In this document: positions 10,204 to 57,364 of the stretch, in pieces
Layout: each line of letters opens with the position of its first letter
How positions within the stretch are numbered: position 1 is the first letter of the stretch
NCBI GenBank assembly: GCA_964464595.1
Contig: CAYXGW010000002.1
Coordinates: 753-64,752 of the forward strand
DNA from: an uncultured Deferribacteres bacterium
Lineage (GTDB): Bacteria > Zhuqueibacterota > JdFR-76 > DREG01
Length of the DNA: 64,000 nt
Reading direction: 5' to 3'
Translations under genes and position numbers: made by a program
Notes under the pieces: model-generated
The model's input: the letters and a program-made list of their open reading frames with translations, nothing else
Told to the model about the DNA's origin: nothing
The model's database searches: none

Positions 10204-11523
10204 TTACTCATTATCATTAACTTTAATAACAATCAAAGTTAAATCGTCTTCAACTCTATTGATCATACTAAACTTGTAGATTTCGGAGGTAATTTTATTA
10301 ATTAATTCAGCAGCACTTAAATGTGAGTTTTCTTGAATAATTTCAATCACATTATTCAGCTCAAAAAAATCACCGTTCGGATTTTGAGCTTCGATAAGTC
10401 CATCCGTATAAAAAAGGGCGATATCTCCAGGGATTAGTTGAACTTTAGATTCGGTGTATGGCATATTCTGAATAAATCCAAGTACAGTACCGCCTAGTTT
10501 CAATTCAATGAGACCGCCGTTTTTCCGAATAATAACTGGTGGAAAATGTCCTGCATTCGTGTAAACAAAATCTCGAGTTTTGGGATTTAATTCGCCATAA
10601 AAAAAGGTAGCATACGTATCCGCGATTGTAGTTTCATAGATCAAGTTATTCAATGATACCATGGTATCCTGCACAGAAAACGTCTCATGCAATAGGCTTT
10701 TGTATGTCGAAAATAAGGATGCCATTAAAATAGCTGCCGGAGTTCCTTTTCCGGAAACATCGCCAATCGCAACTCCGATATTTCCACTGGCAAGGCGAAC
10801 CAAATCATACAAATCACCACTTACCGTTTTGGAAGGCAGGTTAAAACTTGCAAACTCAAAACCATTTTCTTGTGGCAAAGATTTGGATAAAATCGCCTCC
10901 TGTATTTGTCTCGCAATTAATAGGTCTCTTTCCAAGTCCCTTGATTTTAACAATTCCCGGTGCAAGCGAGCATTATCCAGAGCAATCGCAGCATGATTTG
11001 CAAAAGCTGTTAAAAGTTGAAAATCCTTTTGGTTAAACGCATTTAATCGATCTGATTCAAGATTTAAAACTCCAATCAATTTTTCCTTTGCAAATAGAGG
11101 TACCAGCATTGCAGACTGAGTTTCATTTTTCACGTTTACATATAGCCGGTCTTTGGAAGTATCCGGACAAATCTTCCCCTTTCCTTCTCTCGCGACCACT
11201 CCTGTAAGCCCTCTTCCTACTTTTAAATGCGCTCTTTTTACAGTTTCTTCATCATATCCACGGATTGCCTCGGGGATAAGTTTATTGGTAGTTGGATCTA
11301 TTAAGAAGATTCCAGCAGCATCAAAAGGAATTACCCGGTTCAAATAATCAAATATTAAATTGAGGACATTATTTAAATTCAAAGTTGAATTGATATTCTT
11401 GCTTAGTTCAAGAAGCATAGATTTCTCAAGAGATTCCTTTTGCAATTCCTTTAAAAGGCTAGCAATCTCATCTGTTATATTTGGGGTGTCTTTCAGTAAT
11501 CTTTGAATATCTAGAGCAGCCAT
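10204..11523 (-). CDS. GAF-domain PP2C (SpoIIE/RsbU-type) serine phosphatase
   Basis: The N-terminus is GAF. The C-terminus is a PPM-type phosphatase with the typical SGDLYD, GDVSGKG and FYTDGLIEA motifs. Confidence 0.85.
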   Translation of the reverse strand: MAALDIQRLLKDTPNITDEIASLLKELQKESLEKSMLLELSKNINSTLNLNNVLNLIFDYLNRVIPFDAAGIFLIDPTTNKLIPEAIRGYDEETVKRAHLKVGRGLTGVVAREGKGKICPDTSKDRLYVNVKNETQSAMLVPLFAKEKLIGVLNLESDRLNAFNQKDFQLLTAFANHAAIALDNARLHRELLKSRDLERDLLIARQIQEAILSKSLPQENGFEFASFNLPSKTVSGDLYDLVRLASGNIGVAIGDVSGKGTPAAILMASLFSTYKSLLHETFSVQDTMVSLNNLIYETTIADTYATFFYGELNPKTRDFVYTNAGHFPPVIIRKNGGLIELKLGGTVLGFIQNMPYTESKVQLIPGDIALFYTDGLIEAQNPNGDFFELNNVIEIIQENSHLSAAELINKITSEIYKFSMINRVEDDLTLIVIKVNDNE

Positions 11524-13431: not shown

Positions 13432-14421
13432 TTACCCACCTATTTCAGACATGGATTCGGACACTAGTCGTTGCTTGGTTCGATTTTTTTGTGCTTCAAA
13501 TCCATCCTTAAAGCGATTACCAATGCAATTGATTATCGATTGTTGAATTTCCAGATCATCACAACCGGATGTTAGCATTTTCCGCAAATCGAGAACTCCA
13601 TCATCATACAGGCAGGTTTTAAGCATACCTTTTGCGGTTATTCTCAATCGATTGCACGTTGCGCAAAACAACCGCGAAAATCCTGCAATAATACCAACCG
13701 TTCCAGCATGCCCTGGTATTTTATAAGTCATTGAAGTAGAATTTGGTTTTTCAGGTAATCGTGTCATTCCCTCAAAGTTTTCTTCCAGAGTATTAAGTAT
13801 TCTGTTTGAGTTCCATTGCAGTTTTTGAAAATCCTCAGAGGTGCCATTAAATGGCATCTCTTCAATAAACCTCATGTCAATTGGATATTTTTTAGAAAGA
13901 TTAGCAAGAGGTAGAATCTGTTCTGTATTGATCCCATCCATAATTACAGCATTTATCTTTAAGGGAATTCCATATTCAAGAATTTTGTGGAAACTGGCCA
14001 TCACCAGGGCATGTTCGTCTCTCCTGGTAATTTCTTTGAATTGTTTGGCATCCGTTGTATCTAGGCTTAAATTAATGCCGGCAATAGCCATTTTCTTAAG
14101 TTCCGGAACATGTTTTTCAGTCAAAACACCATTTGTCGTTATGTAAATTTCATCCAAACCATTTATCGAACTTATGGCTTTTAAGAAATCAATTAACCCC
14201 TTTCTAAGAAATGGCTCCCCCCCGGTAATTCGGACTTTATTAACTCCAATTTTCCCAAGCAGAATCACAAGCCGTTTCATTTCTTCATATGTCAGGATTT
14301 CTTTTCTTGGCAGGTAAGTGATACCATTTGCCGGCATGCAATAAGTACATCTCAGGTTACACCTATCTGTTACGGATAAGCGCAAGTAATTGACAGGTCT
14401 GTTATGATTATCCAAAATCAT
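13432..14421 (-). CDS. moaA: GTP 3',8-cyclase MoaA (radical SAM)
   Basis: It has the CNLRCTYCMP radical-SAM cysteine motif and the C-terminal Cys cluster CATCNRLRITAKGMLKTCL. Confidence 0.85.
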   Translation of the reverse strand: MILDNHNRPVNYLRLSVTDRCNLRCTYCMPANGITYLPRKEILTYEEMKRLVILLGKIGVNKVRITGGEPFLRKGLIDFLKAISSINGLDEIYITTNGVLTEKHVPELKKMAIAGINLSLDTTDAKQFKEITRRDEHALVMASFHKILEYGIPLKINAVIMDGINTEQILPLANLSKKYPIDMRFIEEMPFNGTSEDFQKLQWNSNRILNTLEENFEGMTRLPEKPNSTSMTYKIPGHAGTVGIIAGFSRLFCATCNRLRITAKGMLKTCLYDDGVLDLRKMLTSGCDDLEIQQSIINCIGNRFKDGFEAQKNRTKQRLVSESMSEIGG

Positions 14422-14445
14422 TATTAAATCCTTTGCAATCTTCCA

Positions 14446-16689
14446 TTATTTAATATTTTGTAAAGCCGTAATGATATCCAAGGTTCGTCTCCTGTATTCT
14501 TTTGCTGTTTGATTGGTTTGATCTAATTTGAGTATTTCATCAAATGAATCAGCAGCTGCTTGATATTGTTTTTGTGAATATAGTTGAATACCTCTTTGCA
14601 AGAGAATCGTAATTTGACGATTTTTTGCAGTTCTTATTGTACTTAGTAATGTAGTAATCTCTTGGCGCTCATGTTCCTCAGAAAGAAGTTGGATAGAAAG
14701 TTCTTCTGCTTTATTATACTGTTTGTTTGACAATGCTTTTTTTGCCTGCAACCATTTCCGGTCTCTTTCCATACGTAGTTTTGTTCTGGTTACCGCATTT
14801 GAATACATACTATTTCTCGGGTTAAATTCCCTTGCTTTCAAGTAATGTTTTAATGCTGTACTATCATCACCCTGATTATAGGCAACATCACCTAATGATT
14901 CAAATTTTTTTGCTAATTCAACACGTTCAATTTTGTTTTTCCGGATAAGATTTTTTGCCGGCAAATAATCTTTCTTTAAATTAAGAATTTCATTGCACAG
15001 TGACTCTGATAACTTAAAATTTTGATTTTTATTAGCGGATTGTGCTCTTTTTAGCAAATCATTCAAATGTCGATCAAATTGAGGCTTAAGCTGTTGAACG
15101 GCTTGAGAAGCCACTGGATTTTCCACATCCAAATTTAAAACCATTCCATATTTGTTTACTGCTTCAAGGTAATTCCCATTTGTTTCAAATTGGCTAGCTA
15201 TCTTAACCAGGCTATCGATTTGCGACTGTTTATTTTGAATGCGATTCCGAACATCTTTCAAATTTTCATTTATGGATGGATATTGAGGATCATATCTTTT
15301 AACATTCTCAAATTTACTTAAAGCAGATCGGTATTTTTTTTGAGAATAATAACCATGAGCCATGAGAGACTCTTTCTCTGCTAAGTACTTCAAAGTATCT
15401 TCTGTCATTTTTTTTGTATGCGAAATCAAGGTATCATTCGGAAATAGGTGGTGAATTCTACTAAGCACACGATTTGCATTTACGAAATCACTTTGTTCCA
15501 ACAATTCGTTAATTCTCTTTCTAACTGGATTCAATTCATTTGATGCTGAAGATCGTAATATGTTAAATTTTCTATTAGCTATTTCATTATGTGGGAATTG
15601 TTCTATAATGTTATCATATTGAATCAAGGCAAGTAATTTTTCTCCTTTTCTTTCATACTCTATCGCCGATCTTAACATCCTTTGCTCTTTTCTGGCTAAC
15701 GATTTGTACCTGTCTTCGACAATTTTGAATGTACGTTGATAGGTTTTATTCTCAGGTTGATACGCTATAGAATTACGGAAATGGAAGTATGCCTTCGCAA
15801 CTTCTTTTTTATCAAGAGAGTTCATACCCTGTTCATAATTTTTCTTTGCACGAACGGCCGGACTTTCTCCAAACTTTACATTTGCCGAGAATTGAATTTT
15901 TTCTTTGAATCTCTCATAAAAGATATCAAGCTGTAAAGATCCAAGAATCACTCCTACACCATACAACCATCTGTTTGAGTTAAAATTTGCAATGCCGGTT
16001 CGTAAAACTGTCGATTTAAAACTTTCTATTTCGATCCCTTGAATATAATCACTTCGGTTTTTTGTAAATTGAAGTTCAGAAAATGTTTGAAAAAATGAAG
16101 GTGTAATAACGTAAGAAATACCAAAATTAGCCTGCAAGGGTATTCCAAACCTACTCTTTGAAATAACCATATTTTGAATAGCAGCAGACAATCCTATTCT
16201 ATCCCAATAAATAAGCCCTCCGAAAATTCTTTCCCCAACCTTCTTAAAGGGAAAATAAGATATACCAACATTGAAGTGAGGTGAATAAGATCTTTCACGG
16301 TCAAATATCATTGAACTAAACCCTATTCTTAATCCGGATGTATAGGATTTTGCTAAACCAACACCCGCATAATCGATAGGAATCGGCCCCGGTATACGGC
16401 CAATTGTAAATCCGACAGAACCAATTCCGGGTATAAAATCTGCAATTGCAGCTTTACTGTAGAAAAAAGATTCATTCACATTTAGACTAAAACTTGGCTG
16501 TCTGGTAAAACTAAGATTGGCTGGATTCCATAAAAAAGAATATGCAGATTGCGTTAATGTAGAAGACAACCCTCCCAATGATTTTGACCTGGCATCAAAA
16601 AAAGTAAAATTATTGTATTGTCCATGCACTTCATTCAACAAAGAAAACAACAAGATTGTTGTCGCCAGTGTATTTAGTAACTTTTGCAT
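14446..16689 (-). CDS. Outer-membrane protein with a signal peptide, an N-terminal beta-barrel-like region and C-terminal TPR repeats
   Basis: The signal peptide is MQKLLNTLATTILLFSLLNEVHGQ. Residues 1 to about 270 have alternating aromatic/hydrophobic residues, typical of a beta-barrel. The C-terminal half has repeated TPR-like helical units (YNKAEEL..., YQAAADSF...). Confidence 0.55.
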   Translation of the reverse strand: MQKLLNTLATTILLFSLLNEVHGQYNNFTFFDARSKSLGGLSSTLTQSAYSFLWNPANLSFTRQPSFSLNVNESFFYSKAAIADFIPGIGSVGFTIGRIPGPIPIDYAGVGLAKSYTSGLRIGFSSMIFDRERSYSPHFNVGISYFPFKKVGERIFGGLIYWDRIGLSAAIQNMVISKSRFGIPLQANFGISYVITPSFFQTFSELQFTKNRSDYIQGIEIESFKSTVLRTGIANFNSNRWLYGVGVILGSLQLDIFYERFKEKIQFSANVKFGESPAVRAKKNYEQGMNSLDKKEVAKAYFHFRNSIAYQPENKTYQRTFKIVEDRYKSLARKEQRMLRSAIEYERKGEKLLALIQYDNIIEQFPHNEIANRKFNILRSSASNELNPVRKRINELLEQSDFVNANRVLSRIHHLFPNDTLISHTKKMTEDTLKYLAEKESLMAHGYYSQKKYRSALSKFENVKRYDPQYPSINENLKDVRNRIQNKQSQIDSLVKIASQFETNGNYLEAVNKYGMVLNLDVENPVASQAVQQLKPQFDRHLNDLLKRAQSANKNQNFKLSESLCNEILNLKKDYLPAKNLIRKNKIERVELAKKFESLGDVAYNQGDDSTALKHYLKAREFNPRNSMYSNAVTRTKLRMERDRKWLQAKKALSNKQYNKAEELSIQLLSEEHERQEITTLLSTIRTAKNRQITILLQRGIQLYSQKQYQAAADSFDEILKLDQTNQTAKEYRRRTLDIITALQNIK

Positions 16690-16694
16690 TGAAT

Positions 16695-18101
16695 TTAATA
16701 GGTAATACGGTAAATTGACACAGCATTTTTTCTACCGCTAAATTTTGCAGGTTCCATTTTAACTACAGAAAAAGACTTATCTAATTTTTGAATTACAGTT
16801 TTTGTAATCACAATATGGCCTGAACGTGCATAATTGCAAAGTTTACTGGCTAAATTTACAACATCACCAATAGCTGTATAGTCCATACGTGATTTAGCTC
16901 CCATACTACCCAAAATAGCAAACCCGAAATTAATGCCAATACCTACAGTTAAACATTCTTTCTTCTCATCTCTTCTCTCGTGATTAATTTCAATCAATCC
17001 CTTTTGAATTTGGATTGCGGCTTTAATTGCATCATCGGATGCATTCTCTCCTTGGAAAATAGCCATAAGCTGATCTCCGGCGAACTTATCAATAACGCCA
17101 TTATTATCAATAATATAACGAGATTGCATATTCAAATAAACATTTATAATATCAACAAGCGCTTCCGGTTCCATGCCTTCCGAAAGACTTGTAAAGCCTC
17201 GAATATCTGAGAACAAAACAGCAATCTCTTTCTTTATCATGGATGAAGTATCTGCATCTTGTCCGGAATGATTCTGAATCATATCGACAGTCAGAGAAGA
17301 TACAAATTTTTTCATTTGTATGTTTTCCCGGAGACTTCTCACCATACGGTTGAACTCATCGGCGAGCAATCCAATTTCATCTTTATTCTTTATTTTAATA
17401 ACTACATTCAAATTACCTTTTTCCAACTCTTTAACACCGTCGGATAGTTTCACTATATTTGATGATAATCGTTTGGAAAAGATGTTTACAATAAATACAC
17501 TTAGCAAAATTATACCTATCGTTAGCAGAAGGATTATATTTTTTGCAGTATTAAAAGCTGATTGAATCATAGCATGAGAAAAGACAATACCAGCCAATCC
17601 TGTAGTTATCTCTTCATCAATTCCATTCCGATTCGTGTTAATAACAATTTTATGTAAGTACTCTGATTTGTTATTATGTTCAATAACTTTTAAATCTTCC
17701 GTTAGAGATAAGTAATAATTATACTCGCTTTTTGTGGAGTTGATTTGTGAAAGATCAGAGTGCGCCACAATTACACTGTCTCTATCCATAACAAAAGCAC
17801 TCTCAAATCCTTCCATAACAATATCATTAATTACTTTCTGAATCGGTGCATGATTTTTTATGAGTAAATTCTCGCTGGCCACACTTGCCAAACTTTGAAT
17901 GGTTAGTCTATATATAGCTTCGACTTTTTCTCTTAGAACATATTTCCCAGCTTCCAAAACAGCCCAACTTAACAGTAGAATCATGACAATCGTAATAGAT
18001 CCAATAACAAGGATAAACTTGACTTGCAGGTTTAGGTGGAGATAAAAATCCCGAATTTTATTTTGAAGAGATTTCAAAAATAGAATTATTGAATGAATCA
18101 T
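16695..18101 (-). CDS. Membrane-anchored class III adenylate/guanylate cyclase with a periplasmic sensor region and a HAMP domain
   Basis: It has two TM segments and a HAMP region. The CYCc catalytic domain carries VLFSDIRGFTSLSE and KFAGDQLMAIF motifs. Confidence 0.8.
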   Translation of the reverse strand: MIHSIILFLKSLQNKIRDFYLHLNLQVKFILVIGSITIVMILLLSWAVLEAGKYVLREKVEAIYRLTIQSLASVASENLLIKNHAPIQKVINDIVMEGFESAFVMDRDSVIVAHSDLSQINSTKSEYNYYLSLTEDLKVIEHNNKSEYLHKIVINTNRNGIDEEITTGLAGIVFSHAMIQSAFNTAKNIILLLTIGIILLSVFIVNIFSKRLSSNIVKLSDGVKELEKGNLNVVIKIKNKDEIGLLADEFNRMVRSLRENIQMKKFVSSLTVDMIQNHSGQDADTSSMIKKEIAVLFSDIRGFTSLSEGMEPEALVDIINVYLNMQSRYIIDNNGVIDKFAGDQLMAIFQGENASDDAIKAAIQIQKGLIEINHERRDEKKECLTVGIGINFGFAILGSMGAKSRMDYTAIGDVVNLASKLCNYARSGHIVITKTVIQKLDKSFSVVKMEPAKFSGRKNAVSIYRITY

Positions 18102-18260
18102 TCTAGCTTGTCATTTCAACTTATGGTTTATTAATTATCCCGAATTAAATGTTAACTTGTTTGGATGCAATTATCAAGAAATATTAGTAAGAAACAAAGG
18201 AAAATGGATTAAAAAGGGAGGAAATACTTTATTTGAATTAAATAACAGATCAATTAGAAT

Positions 18261-20084
18261 TTAAAATACAGAAGAAACCTTTAAGGCTAATACTGTCATA
18301 TCATCAGCCTGGGGCATATTACCAACAAATTCTTCGATCTGATCATCTAGTTTGGCAACAATTTCCATTAATTTGTGGTTGGCCAAGCTACTAAGAAGTG
18401 GTTCTAATCTTTCTTCCCCATATTCTTCATTACTTGCATTCATGGCCTCGGTAATACCATCGGTAAACATGAACAAAACATCACCCATTTTTAATGTTAC
18501 TGTTGCTGACTGATAAGGTGCATCAGGCATAACTCCTAATATTAAACCACCGGTTTCCAAGGTCTCTAGGGATCCATCTGAATGAATTAAGTATGGAGGA
18601 TTATGACCTGCATTTGTGTATAAGATTGTTCTTTTTTTAACATCTAAAATACAATAGAAAAATGTAATAAATTTATCTAAAGTCGTATTTTTGTAAATGA
18701 TATTATTAATAATCGAAACCATTTCTTCAGGATTACGATAATCAATGGCAAGAGCCCTTAAGCTAGCTTGAAGATTTGCCATTAACATTGCTGCAGGTGT
18801 ACTTTTCCCCGAGACATCCGCAATTGCAATACCATAAATATCATCCGACAATTTAATACAATCATAATAATCTCCCCCAACTTCGCGACTGGAAACATTG
18901 CGGCCAAATATTTCGATACCGGAAATTTCAGGAAGATCGCTGGGAAGCAGTTGTTTTTGAATATCCCGGGCAATCATTAGTTCATCTTCTAGTCGTTGTT
19001 TCTCCAGCATCTCGTCAACTAATTGCGCATTCTCTATGGAAATAATGGTTTCATTGCCAAGAACTTCAAGAAATTCAAGCTCATCCTTGCTAACTTCTAG
19101 ATTATTAATTTTTTTGCCAATTCCAATAATCCCCAGGACTCGGTCCTTACTCACCATCGACAAAAGAATTTCGATCCCACCATTTATTAATATCTCTATT
19201 GACTCTTTGAGACCAGGCTGATCTTTAATATCCTCAAGTTTAATGTATTTTTTCCCTGAAGCAAAAACTTCAATAAGGTTTGATTTTATTGCACTAAAGT
19301 CTAATTCCTTGATTTCAAGGTTTGCTCCTTTAGCAACAACCATATTAAATTGGTCATGGCTGTCAATCATGATAATACATTTATTGATTAACAATTCCCC
19401 CATAATAGCAAATGATAGAACCTGCGCAATTTTATCTTCTTCAAGAGATGAATTCAATTCGCGGCTTATCTCGAACATTGTGTTTAATTCTTGAATTTTC
19501 TTGTCTAATTTTTTATTCGCTTCACGAACCTCATCAAACAACAAAGCCTTATCAACTGCAATTACAGCTAGATTAGCTAAGGACTCCAAAAAATCTATCT
19601 CATCTTGTGCAAAAGACATCTTACCAAATTTTTTACCATATACCAACATTCCAAGGTAGTTACTATCTGCAATCATCGGAATTATTATTTCTAATCCGTG
19701 TTTTCTGAACTCATCAAAGAATGGTTCACTGCGGTTTTCCAGTTTGTCTCTTGTTAGTGAGTTTTTTGGGATTTCCTGAAGTGAGAATTGCCTTCCTAAC
19801 AATTGAGTGGACAATCCTTTTACATTTTTTATATGTAAAATATTATTAGTATCCACTAGTAAGACCATTCCCTTACTTATCATCAACCTTCCCATTGGTG
19901 TTAACAAAACGTTATCCAAAATTGTCCTGAGTTCAAGACTGGAATTTAGAATTTTATTAATTTCAAAAAGGGAGGTTAATTCGAGGTATTTAATCTTGAG
20001 ATCATCAAACCCTTCAGATGTTTGTTTATGTATTTTGTTCTGCTTTCTCTGAGGATTGGGAATCGACTTATTTTCTTTTGCCAT
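18261..20084 (-). CDS. Tandem-GAF PP2C (SpoIIE/RsbU-type) serine phosphatase
   Basis: Two GAF-like regions are followed by a PPM phosphatase domain (GGDYYD, ADVSGKSTPAAMLMA, FMFTDGITEA). Confidence 0.85.
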   Translation of the reverse strand: MAKENKSIPNPQRKQNKIHKQTSEGFDDLKIKYLELTSLFEINKILNSSLELRTILDNVLLTPMGRLMISKGMVLLVDTNNILHIKNVKGLSTQLLGRQFSLQEIPKNSLTRDKLENRSEPFFDEFRKHGLEIIIPMIADSNYLGMLVYGKKFGKMSFAQDEIDFLESLANLAVIAVDKALLFDEVREANKKLDKKIQELNTMFEISRELNSSLEEDKIAQVLSFAIMGELLINKCIIMIDSHDQFNMVVAKGANLEIKELDFSAIKSNLIEVFASGKKYIKLEDIKDQPGLKESIEILINGGIEILLSMVSKDRVLGIIGIGKKINNLEVSKDELEFLEVLGNETIISIENAQLVDEMLEKQRLEDELMIARDIQKQLLPSDLPEISGIEIFGRNVSSREVGGDYYDCIKLSDDIYGIAIADVSGKSTPAAMLMANLQASLRALAIDYRNPEEMVSIINNIIYKNTTLDKFITFFYCILDVKKRTILYTNAGHNPPYLIHSDGSLETLETGGLILGVMPDAPYQSATVTLKMGDVLFMFTDGITEAMNASNEEYGEERLEPLLSSLANHKLMEIVAKLDDQIEEFVGNMPQADDMTVLALKVSSVF

Positions 20085-20116
20085 TTACTTTTCTATGTAA
20101 ATTTTGCCAAAGGATT

Positions 20117-20548
20117 TTATGAGGTAATGTATTTAGTCATCTCTATAACGTTCTTTTTAGTGGGCTGAATCGAAAACTTTACTTCGTCCATTAAAACTTT
20201 TATTAGATGAAGGCCAAGTCCACCTTTCCTAAATTCAGTAAGATAAGCACCCATGTCGTCAACACCAATATTATTATACTCAAATCCACTACCCTTGTCT
20301 ACAACAGAAACCACCATTTTTTTTGAGTTTAATTCTACATCGATATGGACATCTTTTGATTTTTCTCCTTTATAAGCGTGTTTCATAACGTTTGTGCAAG
20401 CTTCATCAACTGAGAGTTGTATTTTGTTAACGCTATCATCGTTAAAACCCGCTGTTTTGGCAATTTTCCCTACAAAATCACGAATTAAGTCAAGGAATTC
20501 ATCGTCACTTGGGATTACAAGTGAAAATTTTTTAACTTTACTCGGCAA
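20117..20548 (-). CDS. Anti-sigma regulatory factor-type Ser/Thr kinase (RsbW/SpoIIAB-like HATPase_c)
   Basis: It is 143 aa and carries an N-box (EACTNVMKHAY) and G-boxes (DKGSGF, GGLGLHLI). Confidence 0.75.
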   Translation of the reverse strand: MPSKVKKFSLVIPSDDEFLDLIRDFVGKIAKTAGFNDDSVNKIQLSVDEACTNVMKHAYKGEKSKDVHIDVELNSKKMVVSVVDKGSGFEYNNIGVDDMGAYLTEFRKGGLGLHLIKVLMDEVKFSIQPTKKNVIEMTKYITS

Positions 20549-20667
20549 AATCGAACCTCCGTTTAATCAAGTATTTTGCTTTGCAAATCATATATAGAAT
20601 TAGCACATCCAAATTACGGAACGGTATTAAAATAGTTACCAATAGAAGTTTCGTTTAGTTAGTGCTT

Positions 20668-21015
20668 CTATTTTCTAAAGTTTTGCACAGCTTCACTTTC
20701 ATCATCCACAATTTCGTACAAGCTTGGAAATCCTAACAAATCGAATATTTTAAACACTTTCTCAGACATGTTGGACATTTTGATATCACCATCATTCGAT
20801 CTGACATCTTCGATGAAACCCATAAAGACACCTAAACCTGCACTACTGATATAGGCTAATTTCTCACAATTTACGATGATCTTAAACCTGGTTTCATCAA
20901 CTAATTGTTTCAATGCTTCTTCAAAACTTGGCGCCGTGTGTGCATCTAAATATCCATCTAAATTCAAAACAGATATTTCATCAACATCTTTTCTCGTCAC
21001 AGCAAATTCACTCAT
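20668..21015 (-). CDS. STAS-domain anti-sigma-factor antagonist (RsbV/SpoIIAA-like)
   Basis: It is 115 aa with the STAS fold and a phosphorylatable serine region (ISSAGLGVFMG). Confidence 0.75.
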   Translation of the reverse strand: MSEFAVTRKDVDEISVLNLDGYLDAHTAPSFEEALKQLVDETRFKIIVNCEKLAYISSAGLGVFMGFIEDVRSNDGDIKMSNMSEKVFKIFDLLGFPSLYEIVDDESEAVQNFRK

Positions 21016-21033
21016 TTAATCCTCCGACAACGG

Positions 21034-23145
21034 TTAGGAATCAACTTTAACAACAATCATTGAGAGATCGTCGTGTTTTTTTGCATTTTTTGTAAATTTA
21101 GAAACATCATAAATTATTTTATTTAGAATTTCTCCCGCTGGCTTCTCATAGGTTTCATTGAGGACTTTCATTAAACGTTCCAATCCATATTCTTCTAACT
21201 TTGAATTTCTGGCTTCGTCTAGACCGTCCGTAAAAAATAGAAAAAAATCATTTTTATGCCAGCCTATTTCAATTTCCTCAAGAATTTTGTTAAATACAGT
21301 TCCACTATCAAGTGCGACTCCAATGCCAGGGGGTTGTAAGAATAAGGACTGTTTTTCCTTTGAAGAGAAATGAATAAACGGGCCATGCCCCGCCCGAGAA
21401 ATTGTTACTTTTTTCTCCTTTAAATCAAAAATAGCGTATATCATAGTTACGAATGTTTTTTGATCTAATGTTTCATATAAAGTTTTATTCACTTTTTCCA
21501 GCAAGATTCTTGGGGAATCGTAAAGGCTGGCATATGCACTTACTATTCCTTTTAATTCTGCCATATAAAATGCAGCAGAAAGCCCTTTTCCGGAAACATC
21601 TGCTATAACCACACCAAGTCTATCCTCACCAAGATCAATAAAATCAAAATAATCACCACCAACTTCGGTAGCCATTAAGCAATGTGCATCAATATCCAGT
21701 GAACCCTTTTCTGGCATTGCTTTTGGAAGAAGTCTCATTTGAGTATTACGGGCAACCATTAATTCTTGTTCTATCCTCTCCTTTTCAATCGATTGCTCAA
21801 TAAGCCTGGAATTTTCAATTGCCACAGAAGCTTGATTTGCAAAAGCTTGCAGCATTTCACGATCGTCCTGTTCGAAACCATATTCTTTTTCTTTCGTCGC
21901 ATACAAAATACCCATAACTCCATCCTTAGAAGTAAGCGGAACTCCTAAAATTGAACCTATGTTATTTTGATAATTTAAAATATATTCTGAACGACTATCT
22001 TTGGAAACATCATTCACTAAAACCGATTCTTTATTTTCGAAAATCCAACCGCTTAATCCTTCATTATTTTTGAAATGCATATTGGAAAGTTCTTTATTAG
22101 TGAGATTATGATATGATACAACACTTAGTTCGCCGTCTTCCTTTTTCATTTCAAGCCAGCTTGCGTCCGGGTTTAGAACATCATGTGTTAAGGTTGTCAC
22201 TTTTGATATCAACTCATCATAGCTCAAAACTGAACTAATATCTCTACTCAGGTTTTGTAAAGATTCAATCTCTCTAATTTTTTTCTCAAATATACTAGCT
22301 GTTGGTAAATGAAGCAATAAATTCAATTCCGCCAATACCAAGTAAGAACACATAAAATAAAAAGTAAAACTATTAAAGGACCCCAAAGTAAAACTATATG
22401 TATTAATCTCCTGAAAAATGTTGGATTCATAAACAAGAATCGCTCCCGGAATTAGAAACAATCCTGCCCAGCAAGCTATATACTTCTGTCTTTTATTTAG
22501 GTATGTCACCCAAGAAGTTCTAAAAGATAACAAAAATATTATTAAAAGCAGCAAGCTAAAAAACACCCATTCTAATGGCGTTTGACCTTGAAATGACCAG
22601 TCTGTTTTGAACATTTTAATTGTGTAATGCCTGTATAATACATACACAACAAATAAAAAAAGTCCGAACCGGAATAATTTATAAGTTTTTGCTTTACTTT
22701 TGTAATGAACTAAATCGCGCAGTAAGAAAAGTAAAACAATTAGAAATAAAGTAACAAAAACAGCAGTAAAAGTAGCACGAAAATCCAATTGAAGTGATCC
22801 AAGTAAATTTAAAGTACTTTCGGTGGATTTTTCGTTTTGGCTGGAAATAATCATTTTGGAAAGAGCTACTGAAATAAATAATCCCAAAGCTGCAAAAAAA
22901 GCAGTCTTAAGTTTATAAACGATATGCTGCTCCTGTTTACTGTGACGTTTATAAAGAAGAGATGTAGCCAATAAAAACACAGCTACTATTAGCGTTTCTC
23001 GCAGCCAATAAATAGGTGTTGGGAGTGTATCACGAAAAAGAAAAGGTAGATCAATAATGAAAATCAAAATGATTACGATCGAGATGGTTCCAATCAGAAA
23101 ATAATTACTTTTTTGTTGTAAAAACCGAATGATTGGTTTAATCAT
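21034..23145 (-). CDS. Polytopic-membrane (about 8 TM) GAF PP2C (SpoIIE/RsbU-type) serine phosphatase
   Basis: The N-terminal roughly 300 aa contain about 8 hydrophobic helices, followed by GAF and PPM domains (GGDYFD, ADVSGKGLSAAFYMA, FFTDGLDEA). The gene overlaps the upstream lipoprotein gene by 4 bp (ATGA). Confidence 0.8.
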   Translation of the reverse strand: MIKPIIRFLQQKSNYFLIGTISIVIILIFIIDLPFLFRDTLPTPIYWLRETLIVAVFLLATSLLYKRHSKQEQHIVYKLKTAFFAALGLFISVALSKMIISSQNEKSTESTLNLLGSLQLDFRATFTAVFVTLFLIVLLFLLRDLVHYKSKAKTYKLFRFGLFLFVVYVLYRHYTIKMFKTDWSFQGQTPLEWVFFSLLLLIIFLLSFRTSWVTYLNKRQKYIACWAGLFLIPGAILVYESNIFQEINTYSFTLGSFNSFTFYFMCSYLVLAELNLLLHLPTASIFEKKIREIESLQNLSRDISSVLSYDELISKVTTLTHDVLNPDASWLEMKKEDGELSVVSYHNLTNKELSNMHFKNNEGLSGWIFENKESVLVNDVSKDSRSEYILNYQNNIGSILGVPLTSKDGVMGILYATKEKEYGFEQDDREMLQAFANQASVAIENSRLIEQSIEKERIEQELMVARNTQMRLLPKAMPEKGSLDIDAHCLMATEVGGDYFDFIDLGEDRLGVVIADVSGKGLSAAFYMAELKGIVSAYASLYDSPRILLEKVNKTLYETLDQKTFVTMIYAIFDLKEKKVTISRAGHGPFIHFSSKEKQSLFLQPPGIGVALDSGTVFNKILEEIEIGWHKNDFFLFFTDGLDEARNSKLEEYGLERLMKVLNETYEKPAGEILNKIIYDVSKFTKNAKKHDDLSMIVVKVDS

Positions 23146-24416
23146 TGTGAAGATATCCTGATTAGATTAGGAGTCCCTAGCGCATTCCACTTTCCTATAA
23201 CTTTTCCATCTTCCGATATTTTTGTAACATTAAAATTACCCGCGTCTGAAACAATGCAACTTCCATCATATTCATCAACATCCAGAGATGTTGGATTCGT
23301 AAATCCGTCTAATTTAAGAATAATTGAACCATTCTTATCCAGTTTAACCAATTGGGAATTGTTGAAACCAGAACGCAAATCAAGCGCCCAACAATCTCCC
23401 GTTTTTTGATTTATATTAACTTGATGAACAAAATTAAAAGCTCCAACAGAAATAAGTAATTCTAAGTTGGAACTAAAATGTTTTACCATGGAAACATCTG
23501 CCACCCAAATAGAACCATCCTGGTAATTAATAGCTACATCTTCAGGTTGATCCAGATTCTCAATAGTGGATTTGGTAGTGTCAGTCAAATTAAATCCTGT
23601 AACTGTTTTGTCCAAAACGTCTGAAATCCAACAAATACCCGATGAAATATCGACCGAAATAGAAACCGGGTTAGAGAAATCTTCATCTATAACGAACAGA
23701 GTGCCTGATGTATCGCCAAAAGCTAGTTTTTTGGAATTTTGAAGAAGTATCCACAATCTATTTCTAGTTGGGTCAAAATCAAGGTCTAAAGGTGAATCAC
23801 TGATGTTAAACTTTTTTACTATTTCTCCATCCAGAGACATGTGCGCGACTTGGTTTAAGAAAAAATCGCTTACCCAAATTCCCTGTCCATTACCGATATT
23901 AGCCATTCCTGAAATATCAAAAAAATCACTTCTAGAAAAAAGGGTATGAGAAGCATCATGTGTTAATTGAAAAAGTTTACCAGTTGTTCTAATCCCAACC
24001 CACATACGAGATGGTCCGGGTGTAATGAAAACTTCATCAGATAGAGGGCCCTCATTAAATTCAGTAATTGCCTGAATTTTATACCTATGGGTAACATCAA
24101 ATAAAACTTCTTGATCATCATAGCGAGATGTATTACCAGGAACCACTGCAATTTCTACAAACCCGCTATCCTGCGATGTTTGCCTAAATATCTTAGTTCC
24201 AATATACCCGTTAATTTCGATATCATCCCAAGTTAAAGAAACGACTCTATCCAAAGAAATTACAGATAAACCTGTCAGCTTTCCCTGGGTAAATGGATTT
24301 TCCGGATCTAAAGGATTGTCGTGCTCACGATCTGCACAACCGTTTATTGCGACAATGAACAATCCTGCGTAAAATAAATAATGTGATTTTTTAAATTTGA
24401 ATAAATTCATCAGCAT
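23142..24416 (-). CDS. Lipoprotein with an Fn3-like domain and a beta-propeller (NHL/YVTN-like) domain
   Basis: It has a signal peptide and a lipobox-like AINGC. Repeated DxSG/IWV blades follow. Its stop overlaps the start of the membrane PP2C gene. Confidence 0.55.
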   Translation of the reverse strand: MLMNLFKFKKSHYLFYAGLFIVAINGCADREHDNPLDPENPFTQGKLTGLSVISLDRVVSLTWDDIEINGYIGTKIFRQTSQDSGFVEIAVVPGNTSRYDDQEVLFDVTHRYKIQAITEFNEGPLSDEVFITPGPSRMWVGIRTTGKLFQLTHDASHTLFSRSDFFDISGMANIGNGQGIWVSDFFLNQVAHMSLDGEIVKKFNISDSPLDLDFDPTRNRLWILLQNSKKLAFGDTSGTLFVIDEDFSNPVSISVDISSGICWISDVLDKTVTGFNLTDTTKSTIENLDQPEDVAINYQDGSIWVADVSMVKHFSSNLELLISVGAFNFVHQVNINQKTGDCWALDLRSGFNNSQLVKLDKNGSIILKLDGFTNPTSLDVDEYDGSCIVSDAGNFNVTKISEDGKVIGKWNALGTPNLIRISSQ

Positions 24417-24715
24417 AATAATACGATTTAAGGTATTTTTGGTTTCCTAGCATTAATTATTAAATAAAATGTACGAAAATCGATGATATAAATCCTGAAC
24501 ACTTTATTTAATCTCGATTCCATTTCAATAAACTTGTATTTTTACTTTATGAAGTTCTTCTTTTTTTTAGATTCAATTTACAAAAAAGTTAATAGCTATA
24601 AAAATAATTAAAAATAATTCAGATTATTAACTTAAAAATTATTATGTAGATAAGGCAGGTAATTTTGAAGTTAATTTAAGGTAGGCTGCAGAATTAAAAT
24701 CCTTTTTAGAGGAAA

Positions 24716-26707
24716 TTAAGACAAATTCATTCTTTTCAACACCTCTTTTATTCTGCCTGAACGTGTTTTATTTCCATTTGAATTCTTGCGACTGCGATAT
24801 AACAATTGTAATCTTTGATAATCGCTTTTAATTTTTGCATATATTAATTTATTTTCTATAGTCACTGCAACTAGCCGAGCGATTTTTTCAAGAATTTGAA
24901 CTAATTCTGTATAGGGTCTTAGTTTATTGGTTGGGTCATCTAATATAAAAAATCCGATAATTTTCTTTTTCCGTGTTGTGATTGGGATAAGTAAAATATC
25001 TTCACAATGCCACATTTTCGGATCGGTTACGGATGTAATAGGCGTCCCATAAATTCTTTTAATAATATTCAGAGGATTATTACGTTCTTGCACAAGATAT
25101 GAATGTGAAATTCGGCATTTCTGTTTCAAAAGCGGAATAATTTCTTCAATAGAAAAATGCAACCTACTTAATATTCTGGCCTTTTCTTTATTCTCTAAAG
25201 CAATTGATTTTAAATTTAATCGGTGGGTGGATTTACTAAAAATTGCGAGAATGGGCAAATTATAACCCAATGAAAGTTTAATGGTCCAAACGATCTCCCG
25301 AAGTAGATTTTCCAACGGCAAATCGATGCAAAATGTTTCCAAAATTGTAAAGATTTGCTTAAAATGTTTATGCTTATTTTCCAATTTTGAAAAGCGCGTA
25401 TGGAATTCATAAAGACCGGAAATGTAATTGGATAATATTTCCGCTCGTTCCAAAATTTGGGTAGATGGGGTTTTGCCTGTTTCAGGGTTCTCAAGAATAA
25501 TAAAACCCAGGCAATTTTCATCGGAAGTCCGCAAATTTATAAAAAGACGATCCCCTTTTTCCCAATTATTACCTTCTTTCCATAGTTTGGATTGAAACAA
25601 TTCCACACCAGGCTTTCGTTCTGTTTCATTCAGCACACTTTGGTGAACAAATCGAACAAATTCCGATCTTGGAAATAATTTTCGCACTTCTTTTTCTGTG
25701 AAAAAATCCGAGCGAATTTCTGTTTTATCTCCGTGGATTTTAGCGCCAATTTCTATTTCATTTTGATATTGGTGCTTAGTTGTATGATACAAAAATAAAG
25801 ATGCATACCCGAACTTAAAATTTCTTTTCGGAATTTCAGCTAATTTCATATGAAATAGCTGAATTAAATTTTTGCGAAAGTAATTATTTAATTGATATAA
25901 CTCATGAAATAAAGGTTTTATATCGGTTACTCGTCTTTCTGTTGCTTGTGATTCTTCTTTCGACAATACTTTAAAATAACCACGGAAACCTGAGAAGAGA
26001 GCTTCCGGCCGTGTATATGGGGTTAATTGAAGTTCAACCGGAATAATACCTCTTGTTTTATGGATAACTTCCGTGTCAATCATTAATGTATCCTGACGGC
26101 CTTCTATAGAAGAATGCCATTGGTAGAATATTTCTCGATCTTCGTCGGCAATAAAATCCATCAAATAGGTTTTGTAGAATTCACTAGAGGAAAGCCCAAG
26201 GATATTTTGTAGATTATCATCAAAAGAAATAAAGCGGCCACTTTCGTTAATTTCAAAAAAGGAAGTTATATGAGATAAAGTTGATTCAACTTGAAAATCA
26301 AATGCAATATTTTTTGTTGATACATTTTGTTCTTTTGCTCGATCTAAAGTAAAAGGAATTGCAGTTACGGCACCCTCAACCTTTACAATATAATCAAATA
26401 CTCCACTCTTTACTGCATCCTCCGCTATCCGCTCCTGTTTTTCATCTACAAGGAGTACAAGGGGTATCTTTTTGGCGAAATCCAGTATATTCTCATAGAA
26501 CTGATTGCCGTTGGTTTTAATTAATTCAGCATCAAAAAGAAATGCATGATAATTATTTTGATCAAGAGAATTTTTTATCTCTTTAAGACTGCTAGCCTTC
26601 TCTAATTTATATTTGTTTTGATGAAATTGTAATACTCGGACAATAGAGCTTAGAAATGCCTTGTCATGGCCGATATAGAGTACATTGGTTGGTTGTTCAG
26701 ATGGCAT
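24716..26707 (-). CDS. Receiver-like (REC) - PAS - GAF-like regulatory protein with no recognisable output domain
   Basis: The N-terminus has a receiver-like fold (VLYIGHDK...FLFDAEL). A PAS-like middle region and a GAF-like C-terminus follow. Confidence 0.45.
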   Translation of the reverse strand: MPSEQPTNVLYIGHDKAFLSSIVRVLQFHQNKYKLEKASSLKEIKNSLDQNNYHAFLFDAELIKTNGNQFYENILDFAKKIPLVLLVDEKQERIAEDAVKSGVFDYIVKVEGAVTAIPFTLDRAKEQNVSTKNIAFDFQVESTLSHITSFFEINESGRFISFDDNLQNILGLSSSEFYKTYLMDFIADEDREIFYQWHSSIEGRQDTLMIDTEVIHKTRGIIPVELQLTPYTRPEALFSGFRGYFKVLSKEESQATERRVTDIKPLFHELYQLNNYFRKNLIQLFHMKLAEIPKRNFKFGYASLFLYHTTKHQYQNEIEIGAKIHGDKTEIRSDFFTEKEVRKLFPRSEFVRFVHQSVLNETERKPGVELFQSKLWKEGNNWEKGDRLFINLRTSDENCLGFIILENPETGKTPSTQILERAEILSNYISGLYEFHTRFSKLENKHKHFKQIFTILETFCIDLPLENLLREIVWTIKLSLGYNLPILAIFSKSTHRLNLKSIALENKEKARILSRLHFSIEEIIPLLKQKCRISHSYLVQERNNPLNIIKRIYGTPITSVTDPKMWHCEDILLIPITTRKKKIIGFFILDDPTNKLRPYTELVQILEKIARLVAVTIENKLIYAKIKSDYQRLQLLYRSRKNSNGNKTRSGRIKEVLKRMNLS

Positions 26708-26893: not shown

Positions 26894-28531
26894 CTATGCG
26901 TAAGAATACTCTTGATTTGAAATGATAGAAGTACTTTGTATCGCTATCGTTTTTAAAACATTCTGAACATCTTCGATAATATTTTCCTGAATTATGCTGT
27001 TACCCAGTTTATTATTTGCATTTTTAATATCTTCAAAGAGAATTTTTTCTTCTGATTTCAATCGGTCTAGCAATAAATCCACACTTTGATTAATCTCAAT
27101 AAGTGATTTCATTTTTGTTCTCATTGACTTAATCTCATTCTCAATGTAAGAGTAATGAGAAATAGAACATGAGTTATTCTCAGAAATTAATTTCTTTCCA
27201 AAAGAGCTAACTTCATCCAACCTTTTAAAAACCTCATTCGTTAGATGATGAGCATCCAATGAGAGTTTGTGAATTTCTTCGGCAAGTACACCAATTGCCC
27301 TACCTTTCTCTCCAGCGCTTGCTGCTTTTATCTGTGCATTCACACCAATTAGTTCTAAACTCGAACCAATTTCATTAATTGAACCAATGTAAGAAGAAAG
27401 ATTAGCTGCCTTTTTTGCTAACGTAGACAAGGTAGCAGATATTTCCTGCTCTACTTTGTCATTTTTAAAAGCAAATTCAGCAATCTCCTGTATTTCTTTT
27501 TCGACTTCCATCAAGAATGATGTTTCAGATTCGAAACTAGCATTCAAGGATTCTTGTACTTGATTGTCCTCTTTTAGAAAATCTTTTATCTCAAAAAATG
27601 TAATGGCGACTTGATCATTTGTATGTTGTCTATTATTCCAAATGTTTATTAACTCATTTGACTGCAATTCACATTGACTAATGGCATGTTGGACTTCATT
27701 AGAAAATTTGACCGGATCGTCACCATAAAGCGGCAATTCATTAAATCGCTTCGACATCTCCTGCAAAGAAGAAACTAAAGTATTTGTTTTCTGAACACAG
27801 GGTTTATCTATCTCAACAAAGCTTAGAACTTTTGCTGTTGTTTCATGAATTTTCTTTGTCAATTTTGAAATGTATTTTGCAAACCTAATTCTTGTATCTT
27901 GACTATTAATAACAGATTCCAGATCTTTTTGAGCAGTTTCAAGCATTCCATCTATACTAACATTTTGTTTACTAACGGAATCGTACAATCTCTCAAGAGA
28001 TTTACCAATATGCTCTGTTATTTCTTCAGATTGGGACTGCATTTCCGGATATTTCAATTTAATCTGATCTGCTAATTTTTCCACGTCTTCTGCAATCTTC
28101 ACGAAGCCATTATTCTCAATATTCAATCTGGTGCCTTCTACTCTTGTGAATGTACCGAGCATTTTTAGCATTTTTACAATATTGCTGAATCCTTCCAATG
28201 AAGTGGAGAAATCAGAGAGGTATTCAGTAATTTTCACCAAAAGTTTTAAATTTTCCTCTGCTTTTTCCTGAGTAAGCATAAAATGAATACAGATAGAATT
28301 TAAAATGCTCCAAATACCATCTAACGCTGTTTGGACCCCTTCCCCGGATATCCTTTCTGCAGTAATGGAAGATAGCGTCGATAACTCTTTTGATCGAAAC
28401 TCAATATCTTGCAAATCTGATCTACCGGAAAGCAATTCCTCTATATATTTAGAAACCATGTTCTTTAGACGATTTGCTAGTGTAGAACTTTCCTGGCTTG
28501 ATTCCGCACAGAACTTGTTGATAGCTTCCAT
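26894..28531 (-). CDS. Soluble coiled-coil protein carrying a methyl-accepting chemotaxis protein (MCP) signalling domain
   Basis: NAQIKAASAGEKGRAIGVLAEEIHKLS matches the highly conserved MCP signalling core ([27 protein letters not shown]). There are no TM segments and the rest is predicted coiled coil. Confidence 0.6.
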   Translation of the reverse strand: MEAINKFCAESSQESSTLANRLKNMVSKYIEELLSGRSDLQDIEFRSKELSTLSSITAERISGEGVQTALDGIWSILNSICIHFMLTQEKAEENLKLLVKITEYLSDFSTSLEGFSNIVKMLKMLGTFTRVEGTRLNIENNGFVKIAEDVEKLADQIKLKYPEMQSQSEEITEHIGKSLERLYDSVSKQNVSIDGMLETAQKDLESVINSQDTRIRFAKYISKLTKKIHETTAKVLSFVEIDKPCVQKTNTLVSSLQEMSKRFNELPLYGDDPVKFSNEVQHAISQCELQSNELINIWNNRQHTNDQVAITFFEIKDFLKEDNQVQESLNASFESETSFLMEVEKEIQEIAEFAFKNDKVEQEISATLSTLAKKAANLSSYIGSINEIGSSLELIGVNAQIKAASAGEKGRAIGVLAEEIHKLSLDAHHLTNEVFKRLDEVSSFGKKLISENNSCSISHYSYIENEIKSMRTKMKSLIEINQSVDLLLDRLKSEEKILFEDIKNANNKLGNSIIQENIIEDVQNVLKTIAIQSTSIISNQEYSYA

Positions 28532-28579
28532 TTAATTATTTTTTTCGAATCTGTTTTTGTTTAATTTTTTCCAAACTAT

Positions 28580-29515: not shown

Positions 29516-29604
29516 AATATTTTTCTTATTTGTAAGTGTTTATATACAAATAAGTTATTGCCTTAACTTTTTTCATTAATTACAAAATATAATTAATAAA
29601 GCTC

Positions 29605-29913
29605 TCAAACGTGTCGGATCTTAATTAGCTTGTCCAAATTTATTGAACTGAACAAAGTATGTAAATTATTATGTATACCCGCCACAGCTAATTCACGGTT
29701 TTGTTTTTTGAGCTGATGTAGAAGAACCAAAATTTTACTGATACCGGAACTAGTTATTGTAGGTACGTAAGTCAAGTCCACGACCACATTCTTCCCTGAT
29801 TCATTCAGTGCATTATTAAATGCATTCTTAAGATTTTCTCCGTCAGATTCATTTATTGGCCCGGATATTTTTACCTGCACCTCAGATTCTGATTTTGAAA
29901 TAGATATATCCAT
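29605..29913 (-). CDS. STAS-domain anti-sigma-factor antagonist
   Basis: It is 102 aa with the STAS fold and a conserved Ser region (ITSSGISKILVLL). Confidence 0.7.
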   Translation of the reverse strand: MDISISKSESEVQVKISGPINESDGENLKNAFNNALNESGKNVVVDLTYVPTITSSGISKILVLLHQLKKQNRELAVAGIHNNLHTLFSSINLDKLIKIRHV

Positions 29914-29921
29914 AACTTCTC

Positions 29922-57355: not shown

Positions 57356-57364
57356 ACCACTCCA

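Follow-up and report, generated by a model that had tools for sequence, protein, structure and literature searches.

A partner-switching cassette kept adjacent to a receptor-type class III adenylate cyclase in an uncultured KSB1-type bacterium

The 64 kb stretch of DNA analysed here (contig CAYXGW010000002.1, hereafter the window) comes from an uncultured bacterium. On its minus strand there is an array of genes in which a STAS protein, an RsbW-like kinase and GAF-PP2C phosphatases are encoded next to a membrane-bound class III adenylate cyclase and a tetratricopeptide repeat (TPR) protein. This locus combines two signalling modules, each of which also occurs by itself elsewhere, and one lineage (KSB1 and neighbouring uncultured groups) has kept them adjacent. 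We lean, at slightly less than an even chance, towards the view that the first module is a stand-alone partner switch whose target is encoded in trans, and that the cyclase and the TPR protein form an independent, co-expressed receptor module that perhaps belongs to the same envelope response. We take this view because the switch cassette occurs alone, the cyclase-TPR pair occurs alone and the cyclase has a sensor of its own, and also because there is a promoter-like element in front of the cyclase gene, while sigma factor genes are missing from the window and from ±10 kb around the array in the related loci. A direct link between the switch and the cyclase is plausible and is weighed below. 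Gene content, catalytic and phosphorylation-site motifs, synteny and the separability of the modules were read directly from the loci. The genes of the array and the promoter-like element are, in the order in which they would be transcribed:

23142 to 24416, minus strand: NHL, a 424 aa NHL-repeat protein with a lipoprotein-type N-terminus (…AINGC); Pfam NHL, E=1.3e-6
21034 to 23145, minus strand: PP2C_A, a polytopic-membrane GAF-PP2C; Pfam SpoIIE 143 bits, GAF_2 60.7 bits
20668 to 21015, minus strand: STAS, a single-domain STAS protein of the RsbV/SpoIIAA type, 115 aa; PF01740, TIGR00377
20117 to 20548, minus strand: kinase, an RsbW-like serine kinase or anti-sigma-type HATPase, 143 aa; PF13581
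18261 to 20084, minus strand: PP2C_B, a cytoplasmic GAF-GAF-PP2C, 607 aa; SpoIIE 168.3 bits, GAF_3
18149 to 18177, minus strand: promoter-like element, TTGATA-N17-TAACAT, within the gap between PP2C_B and the cyclase gene; consensus scan
16695 to 18101, minus strand: cyclase, a HAMP class III adenylate cyclase of receptor type with two transmembrane (TM) helices; HAMP, Guanylate_cyc
14446 to 16689, minus strand: TPR protein, secreted, 747 aa, with a beta-rich N-terminal part and a TPR-like region; TPR Pfam matches

The seven genes occupy 24416 to 14446 and lie on the same strand. The NHL and PP2C_A genes overlap by 4 bp and PP2C_A is separated from STAS by 18 bp. The remaining gaps are 119 bp between STAS and the kinase gene (20549 to 20667), 32 bp between the kinase gene and PP2C_B, 159 bp between PP2C_B and the cyclase gene (18102 to 18260) and 5 bp between the cyclase and TPR genes. 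An initial annotation of the window had described STAS, RsbW-like kinase, GAF-GAF-PP2C and HAMP cyclase genes in the span 16695 to 21015. We recovered all four on the minus strand at these coordinates, with Pfam and NCBIfam scores far over the threshold for every named domain, and the gene that was said to begin 5 bp past the cyclase stop codon (14446 to 16689) does so. As a description of the whole unit the span is too short, as it omits the PP2C_A and NHL genes upstream, both of which belong to the conserved array. The gap that had been proposed as a possible promoter site does lie between PP2C_B and the cyclase gene and has the promoter-like element inside it, but its length is 159 bp and not 160 bp. 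The suggested affiliation with Ignavibacteria/Bacteroidota has to be replaced, the identical or near-identical proteins at NCBI being labelled 'candidate division KSB1 bacterium'.

Relatives were gathered via cyclase homologues at graded distance and by a scan of genome contigs, and ±10 kb was viewed around each match. The same seven genes, in the same order and orientation, are present at 10 loci. These represent nine distinct relatives, with cyclase identities to the window of 92-41%:

L002 and L003, one relative represented twice: cyclase identity 92%
L004: cyclase identity 73%; the contig ends within PP2C_A, so that the NHL position is uncovered
L005: cyclase identity 61%
L006: cyclase identity 54%
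L007: cyclase identity 52%
L009, KSB1 4484_219: cyclase identity 44%
L008, bacterium BMS3Abin05: cyclase identity 42%
L089, a metagenome-assembled genome labelled Calditrichaeota: cyclase identity 42%
L010: cyclase identity 41%

Conservation of the STAS-kinase-PP2C-cyclase order had been suggested beforehand as a test, and the result is positive at all 10 loci, without a local sigma gene. The NHL gene is kept at its position in eight of the nine distinct relatives; the ninth is L004, whose contig ends there. The TPR gene follows the cyclase gene in all related loci. The loci rank alike by identity whichever of the seven proteins is compared, with the TPR protein the least conserved (23-87%) and STAS the most conserved (58-99%, compared with 41-92% for the cyclase). 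The identity of elongation factor G between the window and L007 is 68%. This is near the values for Caldithrix-type genomes (56-61%), suggesting that the array spans a deep divergence.

The switch cassette is also found without the cyclase. Only 26 proteins came from a word-index search that used the kinase as query, and the family was seen through a metagenome DNA-pattern scan with a kinase alignment. The scan gave 80 loci, 48 of which have the full cassette of membrane GAF-PP2C, STAS, kinase and GAF-PP2C; seven also have the NHL gene. There is no cyclase gene after the cassette at any of the 28 metagenome loci having at least 2.5 kb of sequence beyond the downstream phosphatase (0/28). The genes that follow the cyclase-less cassettes are unrelated housekeeping genes (peptidase M28, a ComM-like ATPase, the methionine synthase MetH and leucyl-tRNA synthetase). 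All-against-all clustering of the neighbours gave lineage-specific housekeeping genes only and revealed no shared cis-encoded output of these cassettes. More broadly, no target of the kinase or of STAS is encoded locally at any of about 90 loci. All cyclase-less cassettes carry the GAF-GAF-PP2C architecture, which indicates that it did not arrive along with the cyclase. The best kinase identity in cyclase-less loci is 47-50%, the same as in the deep cyclase-linked loci, and since orthologues at this level occur both with and without the cyclase, the kinase fold is not visibly specialised for it. In six of the cyclase-less loci (L097, L098, L102, L105, L106 and L109) STAS is preceded by two tandem copies of the membrane GAF-PP2C gene, each encoding ~700-820 aa.

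The cyclase and TPR genes are likewise found without the switch. In Caldithrix-type genomes a cyclase homologue (35% identity) is followed by a TPR gene, NusG_II and a heptaprenyl-diphosphate-synthase gene, with no adjoining switch genes, and L006 and L007 retain this downstream block of TPR, NusG_II and heptaprenyl-diphosphate synthase genes. None of the 78 other loci with cyclase homologues, which come from other phyla, has STAS and kinase neighbours. As no other sampled lineage of HAMP cyclases has such neighbours, the juxtaposition of cyclase and switch appears to have arisen once and then been retained. An open reading frame (ORF) of ~90 aa precedes the cyclase gene in the Caldithrix-type loci; neither the window nor the long gaps in L006 and L007 contain anything corresponding to it.

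There is no sigma factor gene in the array or close to it. When the candidate ORFs of 100 aa or more in the window were scanned with Pfam (those left out were mostly antisense overlaps, together with two Moa genes), no Sigma70 or Sigma54 domain was found, and searches of six-frame ORFs of at least 50 aa with phmmer and a hidden Markov model, using SigB, RpoE, FliA and extracytoplasmic function (ECF) queries, found no sigma gene either. The two approaches agree with the initial annotation that the 64 kb encode no sigma factor. No sigma gene was found in the ~6 kb past the right edge of the window, and no Sigma70 domain is recorded in the called genes within ±10 kb at the related loci. The custom sigma search gave only 9 sigma genes in 173 loci, which indicates limited sensitivity for divergent ECFs. 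There is one distant sub-branch of the cassette family (L090 and the six metagenome loci L151, L156, L159, L168, L171 and L172) in which an ECF sigma gene lies directly upstream, together with an extra STAS gene in divergent orientation. A gene of ~530 aa, also upstream and absent in L172, encodes a protein with an anti-sigma-like N-terminus (…LSAYLDGEL…), and an additional PDZ/GAF-PP2C gene follows the cassette except in L172, where the contig ends at the kinase gene. A sigma gene adjacent to the cluster in close relatives, which the initial annotation had named as evidence against its proposal, was not seen. The ECF sub-branch does not count as such evidence, because it consists of distantly related loci whose ECF is accompanied by a likely anti-sigma factor of its own.

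Within the array there is no terminator-like site in any intergenic gap. There is a promoter-like element in the gap between PP2C_B and the cyclase gene, TTGATA-N17-TAACAT (18177-18149), which ends 48 nt before the cyclase ATG. The element recurs in L002 and L004, and L005 has it in the variant form TTGAAT-N16-TAATAT. Among the four closest loci it is kept while the remainder of the gap diverges, and it is absent in deeper relatives. Promoter-like hexamer pairs are no commoner in the region than in shuffled sequence. Judged by its conservation, the element is a probable internal promoter in the sub-lineage of the window. The gap itself is 159-493 bp in this sub-lineage, including 460-490 bp with no conserved ORF in L006 and L007, compared with 43 bp in L008 and 31 bp in L089. 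In the latter two the TPR gene also overlaps the cyclase gene, and the arrangement looks like a single operon. The description of the locus as one operon, which was part of the initial annotation, is uncertain: the genes share a strand, the gaps have no terminator-like site and deep relatives have spacings of 31-43 bp, but there are also the conserved promoter-like element and the gaps of 159-493 bp. Read-through combined with an internal promoter would be the simplest account of transcription, and a separate transcription unit for the cyclase, which the initial annotation had mentioned, is the alternative to it. A search of 14000-25000 for structured RNA in the gaps gave no Rfam match at E<=0.1.

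The STAS-kinase gap has conserved sequence of its own. A block, GTAACTATTTT…CGTAA, is conserved in L002, L004 and L005, and a conserved Shine-Dalgarno sequence, AACGGAGGT, lies 5-7 nt before the start codon of the kinase gene, which is TTG in the window as well as in L002 and L004. The gap shortens to 25-60 bp in deeper relatives.

The components of the array look functional when their sequences are compared with solved members of their families. STAS matches PF01740 with 67.6 bits (cutoff 22.6) and TIGR00377 with 73.1 bits (cutoff 53.45), and falls below the spore_II_AA equivalog (55.1 bits compared with 114.75). Its best PDB match is RsbV (6m36_B, E=2.2e-12). The predicted phosphorylation site is Ser58 (motif YISSAGLG), the counterpart of SpoIIAA Ser58 and RsbV Ser56 in alignments with 6m36_B, 1th8_B and 1auz. 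The STAS gene lies beside the kinase gene, and is co-conserved with it, in about 90 loci.

The kinase matches PF13581 (HATPase_c_2) with 94.9 bits and its best PDB match is RsbW (6m36_A, E=2.6e-19). It scores under the equivalog cutoffs of NF003144 (103.1 bits, cutoff 145), TIGR01924 (97.5, cutoff 155.05) and TIGR01925 (59, cutoff 135), and by these scores it is RsbW-like and not an RsbW equivalog. The N-box (DEACTN..KHAY), G1 (DxGxGF) and G2 (GGLGxHL) motifs are invariant or nearly so across 20 homologues, as are residues E49, N53, H57, D84, G86, G88, G109, G110 and G112. The start codon is a TTG behind GGAGG. The kinase of the window is without the basic C-terminal tail (~22 aa) that is present in most orthologues.

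PP2C_A, PP2C_B and PP2C_C, a further GAF-PP2C encoded nearby, each match PF07228 (SpoIIE) over profile positions 2-191 of 192. The metal-binding aspartate motifs GGDY(Y/F)D, DVSGK, TDG and DD were read from the phosphatase translations, as GGDYFD, DVSGKG, TDG and DD in PP2C_A and as GGDYYD, DVSGKS, TDG and DD in PP2C_B. PP2C_A has ~6-7 hydrophobic segments in residues 1-280, as judged by hydropathy, followed by one GAF domain and a SpoIIE-type PP2C domain. PP2C_B has two GAF regions, at residues ~35-187 and 192-357 (two stretches matching GAF_3, with NCBIfam matches to NifA- and DgcA-type GAFs). In the PDB it is matched best by the PP2C domains of RssB, Rv1364c and SpoIIE. Against the SiaA model it scores 48.5 bits where the cutoff is 700, and on this score it is no SiaA orthologue. 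The nearest solved relatives of the GAF domains are a sensor-protein GAF (3o5y) and the Nlh1/NifA-type, DevS/DosT and PtsP GAFs. Comparison with solved structures showed no specific affinity of the phosphatase GAFs to GAFs that bind cyclic nucleotides, the phosphodiesterase and CyaB2 GAFs giving marginal scores.

The cyclase matches HAMP with 41 bits and Guanylate_cyc (PF00211) with 78.9 bits. Hydropathy places its TM helices at residues 30-48 and 189-207. The periplasmic region between them (~residues 50-185) is modelled by AlphaFold2 (AF2) as a long helix and a PAS/Cache-like alpha/beta domain with a predicted local distance difference test (pLDDT) score of 80-90, and PF17203 is recorded for several homologues, suggesting that the cyclase is a receptor with its own sensor. 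The catalytic domain is closest to that of Pseudomonas aeruginosa CyaB (3r5g; E=7.6e-28, 35% identity, target-normalised TM-score 0.86). Residues D299, D343, K339, T409 and N416 align with CyaB and are invariant in 15 orthologues. If their roles are those usual in class III cyclases, the cyclase keeps both metal-binding Asp residues, the Lys/Thr substrate pair and the transition-state Asn. A Lys/Thr substrate pair is typical of class IIIb adenylate cyclases. The position of the transition-state Arg is occupied by K420 (NLASKL) in the window and in all homologues of at least 52% identity; Arg is kept there in the orthologues of ~40-42% identity and in CyaB (expected motif N-x-A-S/A-R). The substitution would leave the fold unaffected. 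Its consequence for catalytic efficiency is uncertain, and activity may be lowered or altered in this sub-lineage.

The TPR protein has a signal peptide. Residues 277-747 are all helical in the AF2 model (pLDDT 80-94). Residues 1-276, modelled from only five sequences, have predicted strands at pLDDT <50, and there is a weak match to the PorV/PorQ family at residues 32-73 (E=1.8e-4). The N-terminal ~250 aa are possibly an outer-membrane barrel.

The basic cycle of the switch can be read with confidence from what is known of these families. In the first module, the RsbW-like kinase would phosphorylate STAS on Ser58 and the GAF-PP2C phosphatases would dephosphorylate it, each answering its own input, with PP2C_C as a third phosphatase nearby. 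PP2C_A would receive its input through its membrane domain and through probable translational coupling to the periplasmic NHL lipoprotein. PP2C_B would be cytoplasmic, with its two GAF domains, and the inputs of the other phosphatases would be cytoplasmic GAF ligands. Unphosphorylated STAS would capture the kinase, so that a target held by the kinase is released. We infer the interactions between the products, the direction of signal flow and the position of the target in trans; the target would most simply be a sigma factor or other regulator encoded elsewhere in the genome. The second module would be a self-contained receptor cyclase, with its periplasmic Cache-like sensor, HAMP domain and class IIIb catalytic domain, paired with the TPR protein, and it probably reports an envelope or extracellular cue. 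Both modules would be co-expressed, probably by read-through and the internal promoter in the sub-lineage of the window, and they probably serve one physiological response, for which physical contact would not be required.

Several observations weigh against two separate modules. The junction between PP2C_B and the cyclase gene is unbroken in nine distinct relatives, although both outer boundaries have been rearranged several times. In the deepest relatives only 31-43 bp lie at this junction, and there is an overlap between the TPR and cyclase genes; the arrangement resembles a single operon and points to a tighter functional link. No product of the array is more conserved than STAS, as expected of a hub with partners beyond the kinase and the phosphatases. 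Finally, no candidate for a target in trans was identified in the sequence covered, which is the window and ±10 kb around the matches. The partner switch could also gate the class III adenylate cyclase directly. We consider this doubtful, and if it does so the phosphorylation state of STAS is the most likely means and the kinase a less likely one. In such a system STAS would itself be the output: binding to the HAMP or catalytic part of the cyclase, dependent on phosphorylation of Ser58, would switch cAMP synthesis, and the kinase and phosphatases would only set its state. Three described partner switches act on a nucleotide cyclase via a STAS or STAS-like protein, with SiaC-SiaD, HsbA-HsbD and BgrV-BgrR each controlling a diguanylate cyclase (PMC8457831, PMC5085249). 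The unbroken junction, the short spacing in deep relatives, the conservation of STAS relative to the cyclase and the lack of a sigma gene in cis are all consistent with this possibility. However, in most lineages the same cassette has no adjacent cyclase, the cyclase has a sensor of its own, unlike SiaD, and the association arose only once. We regard STAS acting on the cyclase as unlikely.

The cyclase could instead lie upstream of the switch. An envelope cue would then raise cAMP through the Cache-HAMP cyclase and the TPR protein, and cAMP bound by GAF domains would activate a PP2C, so that phosphorylated STAS is dephosphorylated and the switch flips. There are three GAF-PP2Cs in or beside the array, one of them with tandem GAFs, the linkage of cyclase and phosphatase genes is conserved, and tandem GAFs of Anabaena CyaB2 are reported to bind cAMP (PMC4411481). 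Set against this are the lack of specific sequence affinity of the phosphatase GAFs to cyclic nucleotide-binding GAFs and the presence of GAF-GAF-PP2C in all cyclase-less cassettes, and we think this order of events improbable. The proposal of the initial annotation was different again, namely that the protein bound by the kinase is not a sigma factor but the cyclase, or a different non-sigma product of the array, and that the kinase lets it go once unphosphorylated STAS binds. In favour of this are the conserved gene order and the lack of a sigma gene in cis throughout the cassette family, save in the one ECF-linked sub-branch. Nevertheless, cassettes occur without a cyclase, the cyclase-TPR pair occurs without a switch, and the kinase is nearest to true RsbW and SpoIIAB, with its 47-50% orthologues found both beside a cyclase and away from one. 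There is also no precedent in the literature searched, where the known cyclase-controlling switches work via the STAS-like protein and not via the kinase. Sequestration of the cyclase by the kinase is very unlikely, and a stand-alone switch beside a separate receptor cyclase remains the reading towards which we lean.

Every component of the array is an ordinary member of a known family, and novelty rests on the genomic context. In comparison with the RsbU/RsbP-RsbV-RsbW-sigmaB switch of Bacillus subtilis, STAS and the kinase are nearest to RsbV and RsbW (6m36) and the phosphorylated serine is aligned. Several PP2C input phosphatases feeding one STAS/kinase pair are a further point of likeness to RsbU and RsbP. 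In contrast with that system, there is no sigma gene after the kinase gene or elsewhere in the 64 kb, the kinase does not reach the equivalog cutoffs for RsbW, the phosphatase inputs are GAF domains and a polytopic membrane domain, and the array runs on into the cyclase and TPR genes. The cyclase resembles P. aeruginosa CyaB (3r5g), of class IIIb, in the Lys/Thr substrate pair and the motif MDYTxIG..VNLAS. It differs in having K420 where CyaB has the transition-state Arg and in its two-TM Cache-like sensor and HAMP domain. P. aeruginosa CyaB carries an N-terminal membrane domain instead of a two-TM periplasmic sensor and HAMP.

Partner switches that control a nucleotide cyclase are SiaABCD and HptB-HsbR-HsbA-HsbD of P. 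aeruginosa and BgrSTUWV-BgrR of Sinorhizobium meliloti, and the array, with PP2C, kinase, STAS and cyclase genes in one conserved cluster, has the gene content of this type. siaD is stated to be co-transcribed with the switch genes and hsbD lies near the hptB cluster (PMC8457831, PMC5085249). Their cyclases are GGDEF proteins that make cyclic di-GMP (c-di-GMP), whereas the cyclase here is of class III with its own Cache-like sensor and HAMP domain, and their interaction with the cyclase has been demonstrated, whereas here it is a hypothesis. Bordetella BtrU/V/W, Chlamydia RsbU/V/W and Vibrio fischeri SypE/SypA have no adjacent cognate sigma factor and have outputs other than sigmaB (PMC8256260). 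They share with the array the RsbU/V/W-type parts and the lack of an adjacent cognate sigma gene, and differ from it in gene neighbourhood (type III secretion system, syp locus), input domains and phyla. In the literature searched, the coverage of which is incomplete, there is no description of a partner switch tied to a class III adenylate cyclase or to cAMP.

The known outputs of partner switches are sigma factors, type III secretion, biofilm regulators and, in three described cases, diguanylate cyclases. Direct gating, if true, would make this the first partner-switching system with cAMP synthesis as its output, and two or three GAF-phosphatase inputs would be integrated with the periplasmic sensor of the cyclase. 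If the adjacency reflects a real interaction, the principle of a STAS protein as output would extend from c-di-GMP to cAMP, and there would be a way into the signalling of a phylum that has not been cultured. Whatever the role of the cyclase, the loci define a widespread four- to five-gene cassette without a sigma gene in cis, consisting of the NHL lipoprotein, membrane GAF-PP2C, STAS, RsbW-like kinase and GAF-GAF-PP2C. The target of this cassette across the sampled lineages is a concrete question for partner-switching biology.

The outer flanks of the array vary by locus, with REC-PAS, Memo/AMMECR1 and spermine synthase genes upstream and Moa genes, an integrase, NusG_II and GAF-PP2C genes downstream. 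Two neighbours recur:

24716 to 26707, minus strand: REC-PAS protein, 663 aa, a recurrent neighbour upstream of the array; Response_reg 37.7 bits, weak PAS matches
10204 to 11523, minus strand: PP2C_C, 439 aa, loosely tied to the array; SpoIIE 158.7 bits, GAF_2 66.5 bits

Homologues of the REC-PAS protein, the C-terminal 430 residues of which have no Pfam match, are encoded upstream of the NHL gene in L002, L005, L006, L007, L009 and L089, sometimes with one to three unrelated genes between. A homologue of PP2C_C is encoded 0-5 genes downstream of the TPR gene in L002, L004, L006, L007, L008 and L010.

Elsewhere in the window there is a second set of genes resembling a partner switch, at 26894-31250 on the minus strand. 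It consists of a REC-PP2C (29922-31250), a STAS protein (29605-29913) and a kinase with REC and HATPase_c_2 domains (28580-29515), followed by a protein with a methyl-accepting chemotaxis protein signalling domain (26894-28531, minus strand). It has the appearance of a switch that is driven by a response regulator and linked to a chemoreceptor-like protein. Further signalling genes lie at 1747-3336, 55979-60219 and 3539-6883, all on the minus strand. They include a GAF sigma-54 activator, a PAS histidine kinase and a REC sigma-54 activator beside a FapA-family gene, and a Ser/Thr kinase of 1114 aa with NHL and FG-GAP repeats.

Some other genes of the window appear to be broken. A gamma-glutamyltranspeptidase is apparently split between ORFs at 35127-35456 and 33777-35111 (minus strand), and a biotin carboxylase between 41349-41789 and 41850-42722 (plus strand), with ~50 profile positions missing between the two parts. 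These split genes, and likewise a fragment of an alpha/beta hydrolase at 38991-39314, within 38001-39314 (minus strand), could be frameshifts, pseudogenes or assembly errors.

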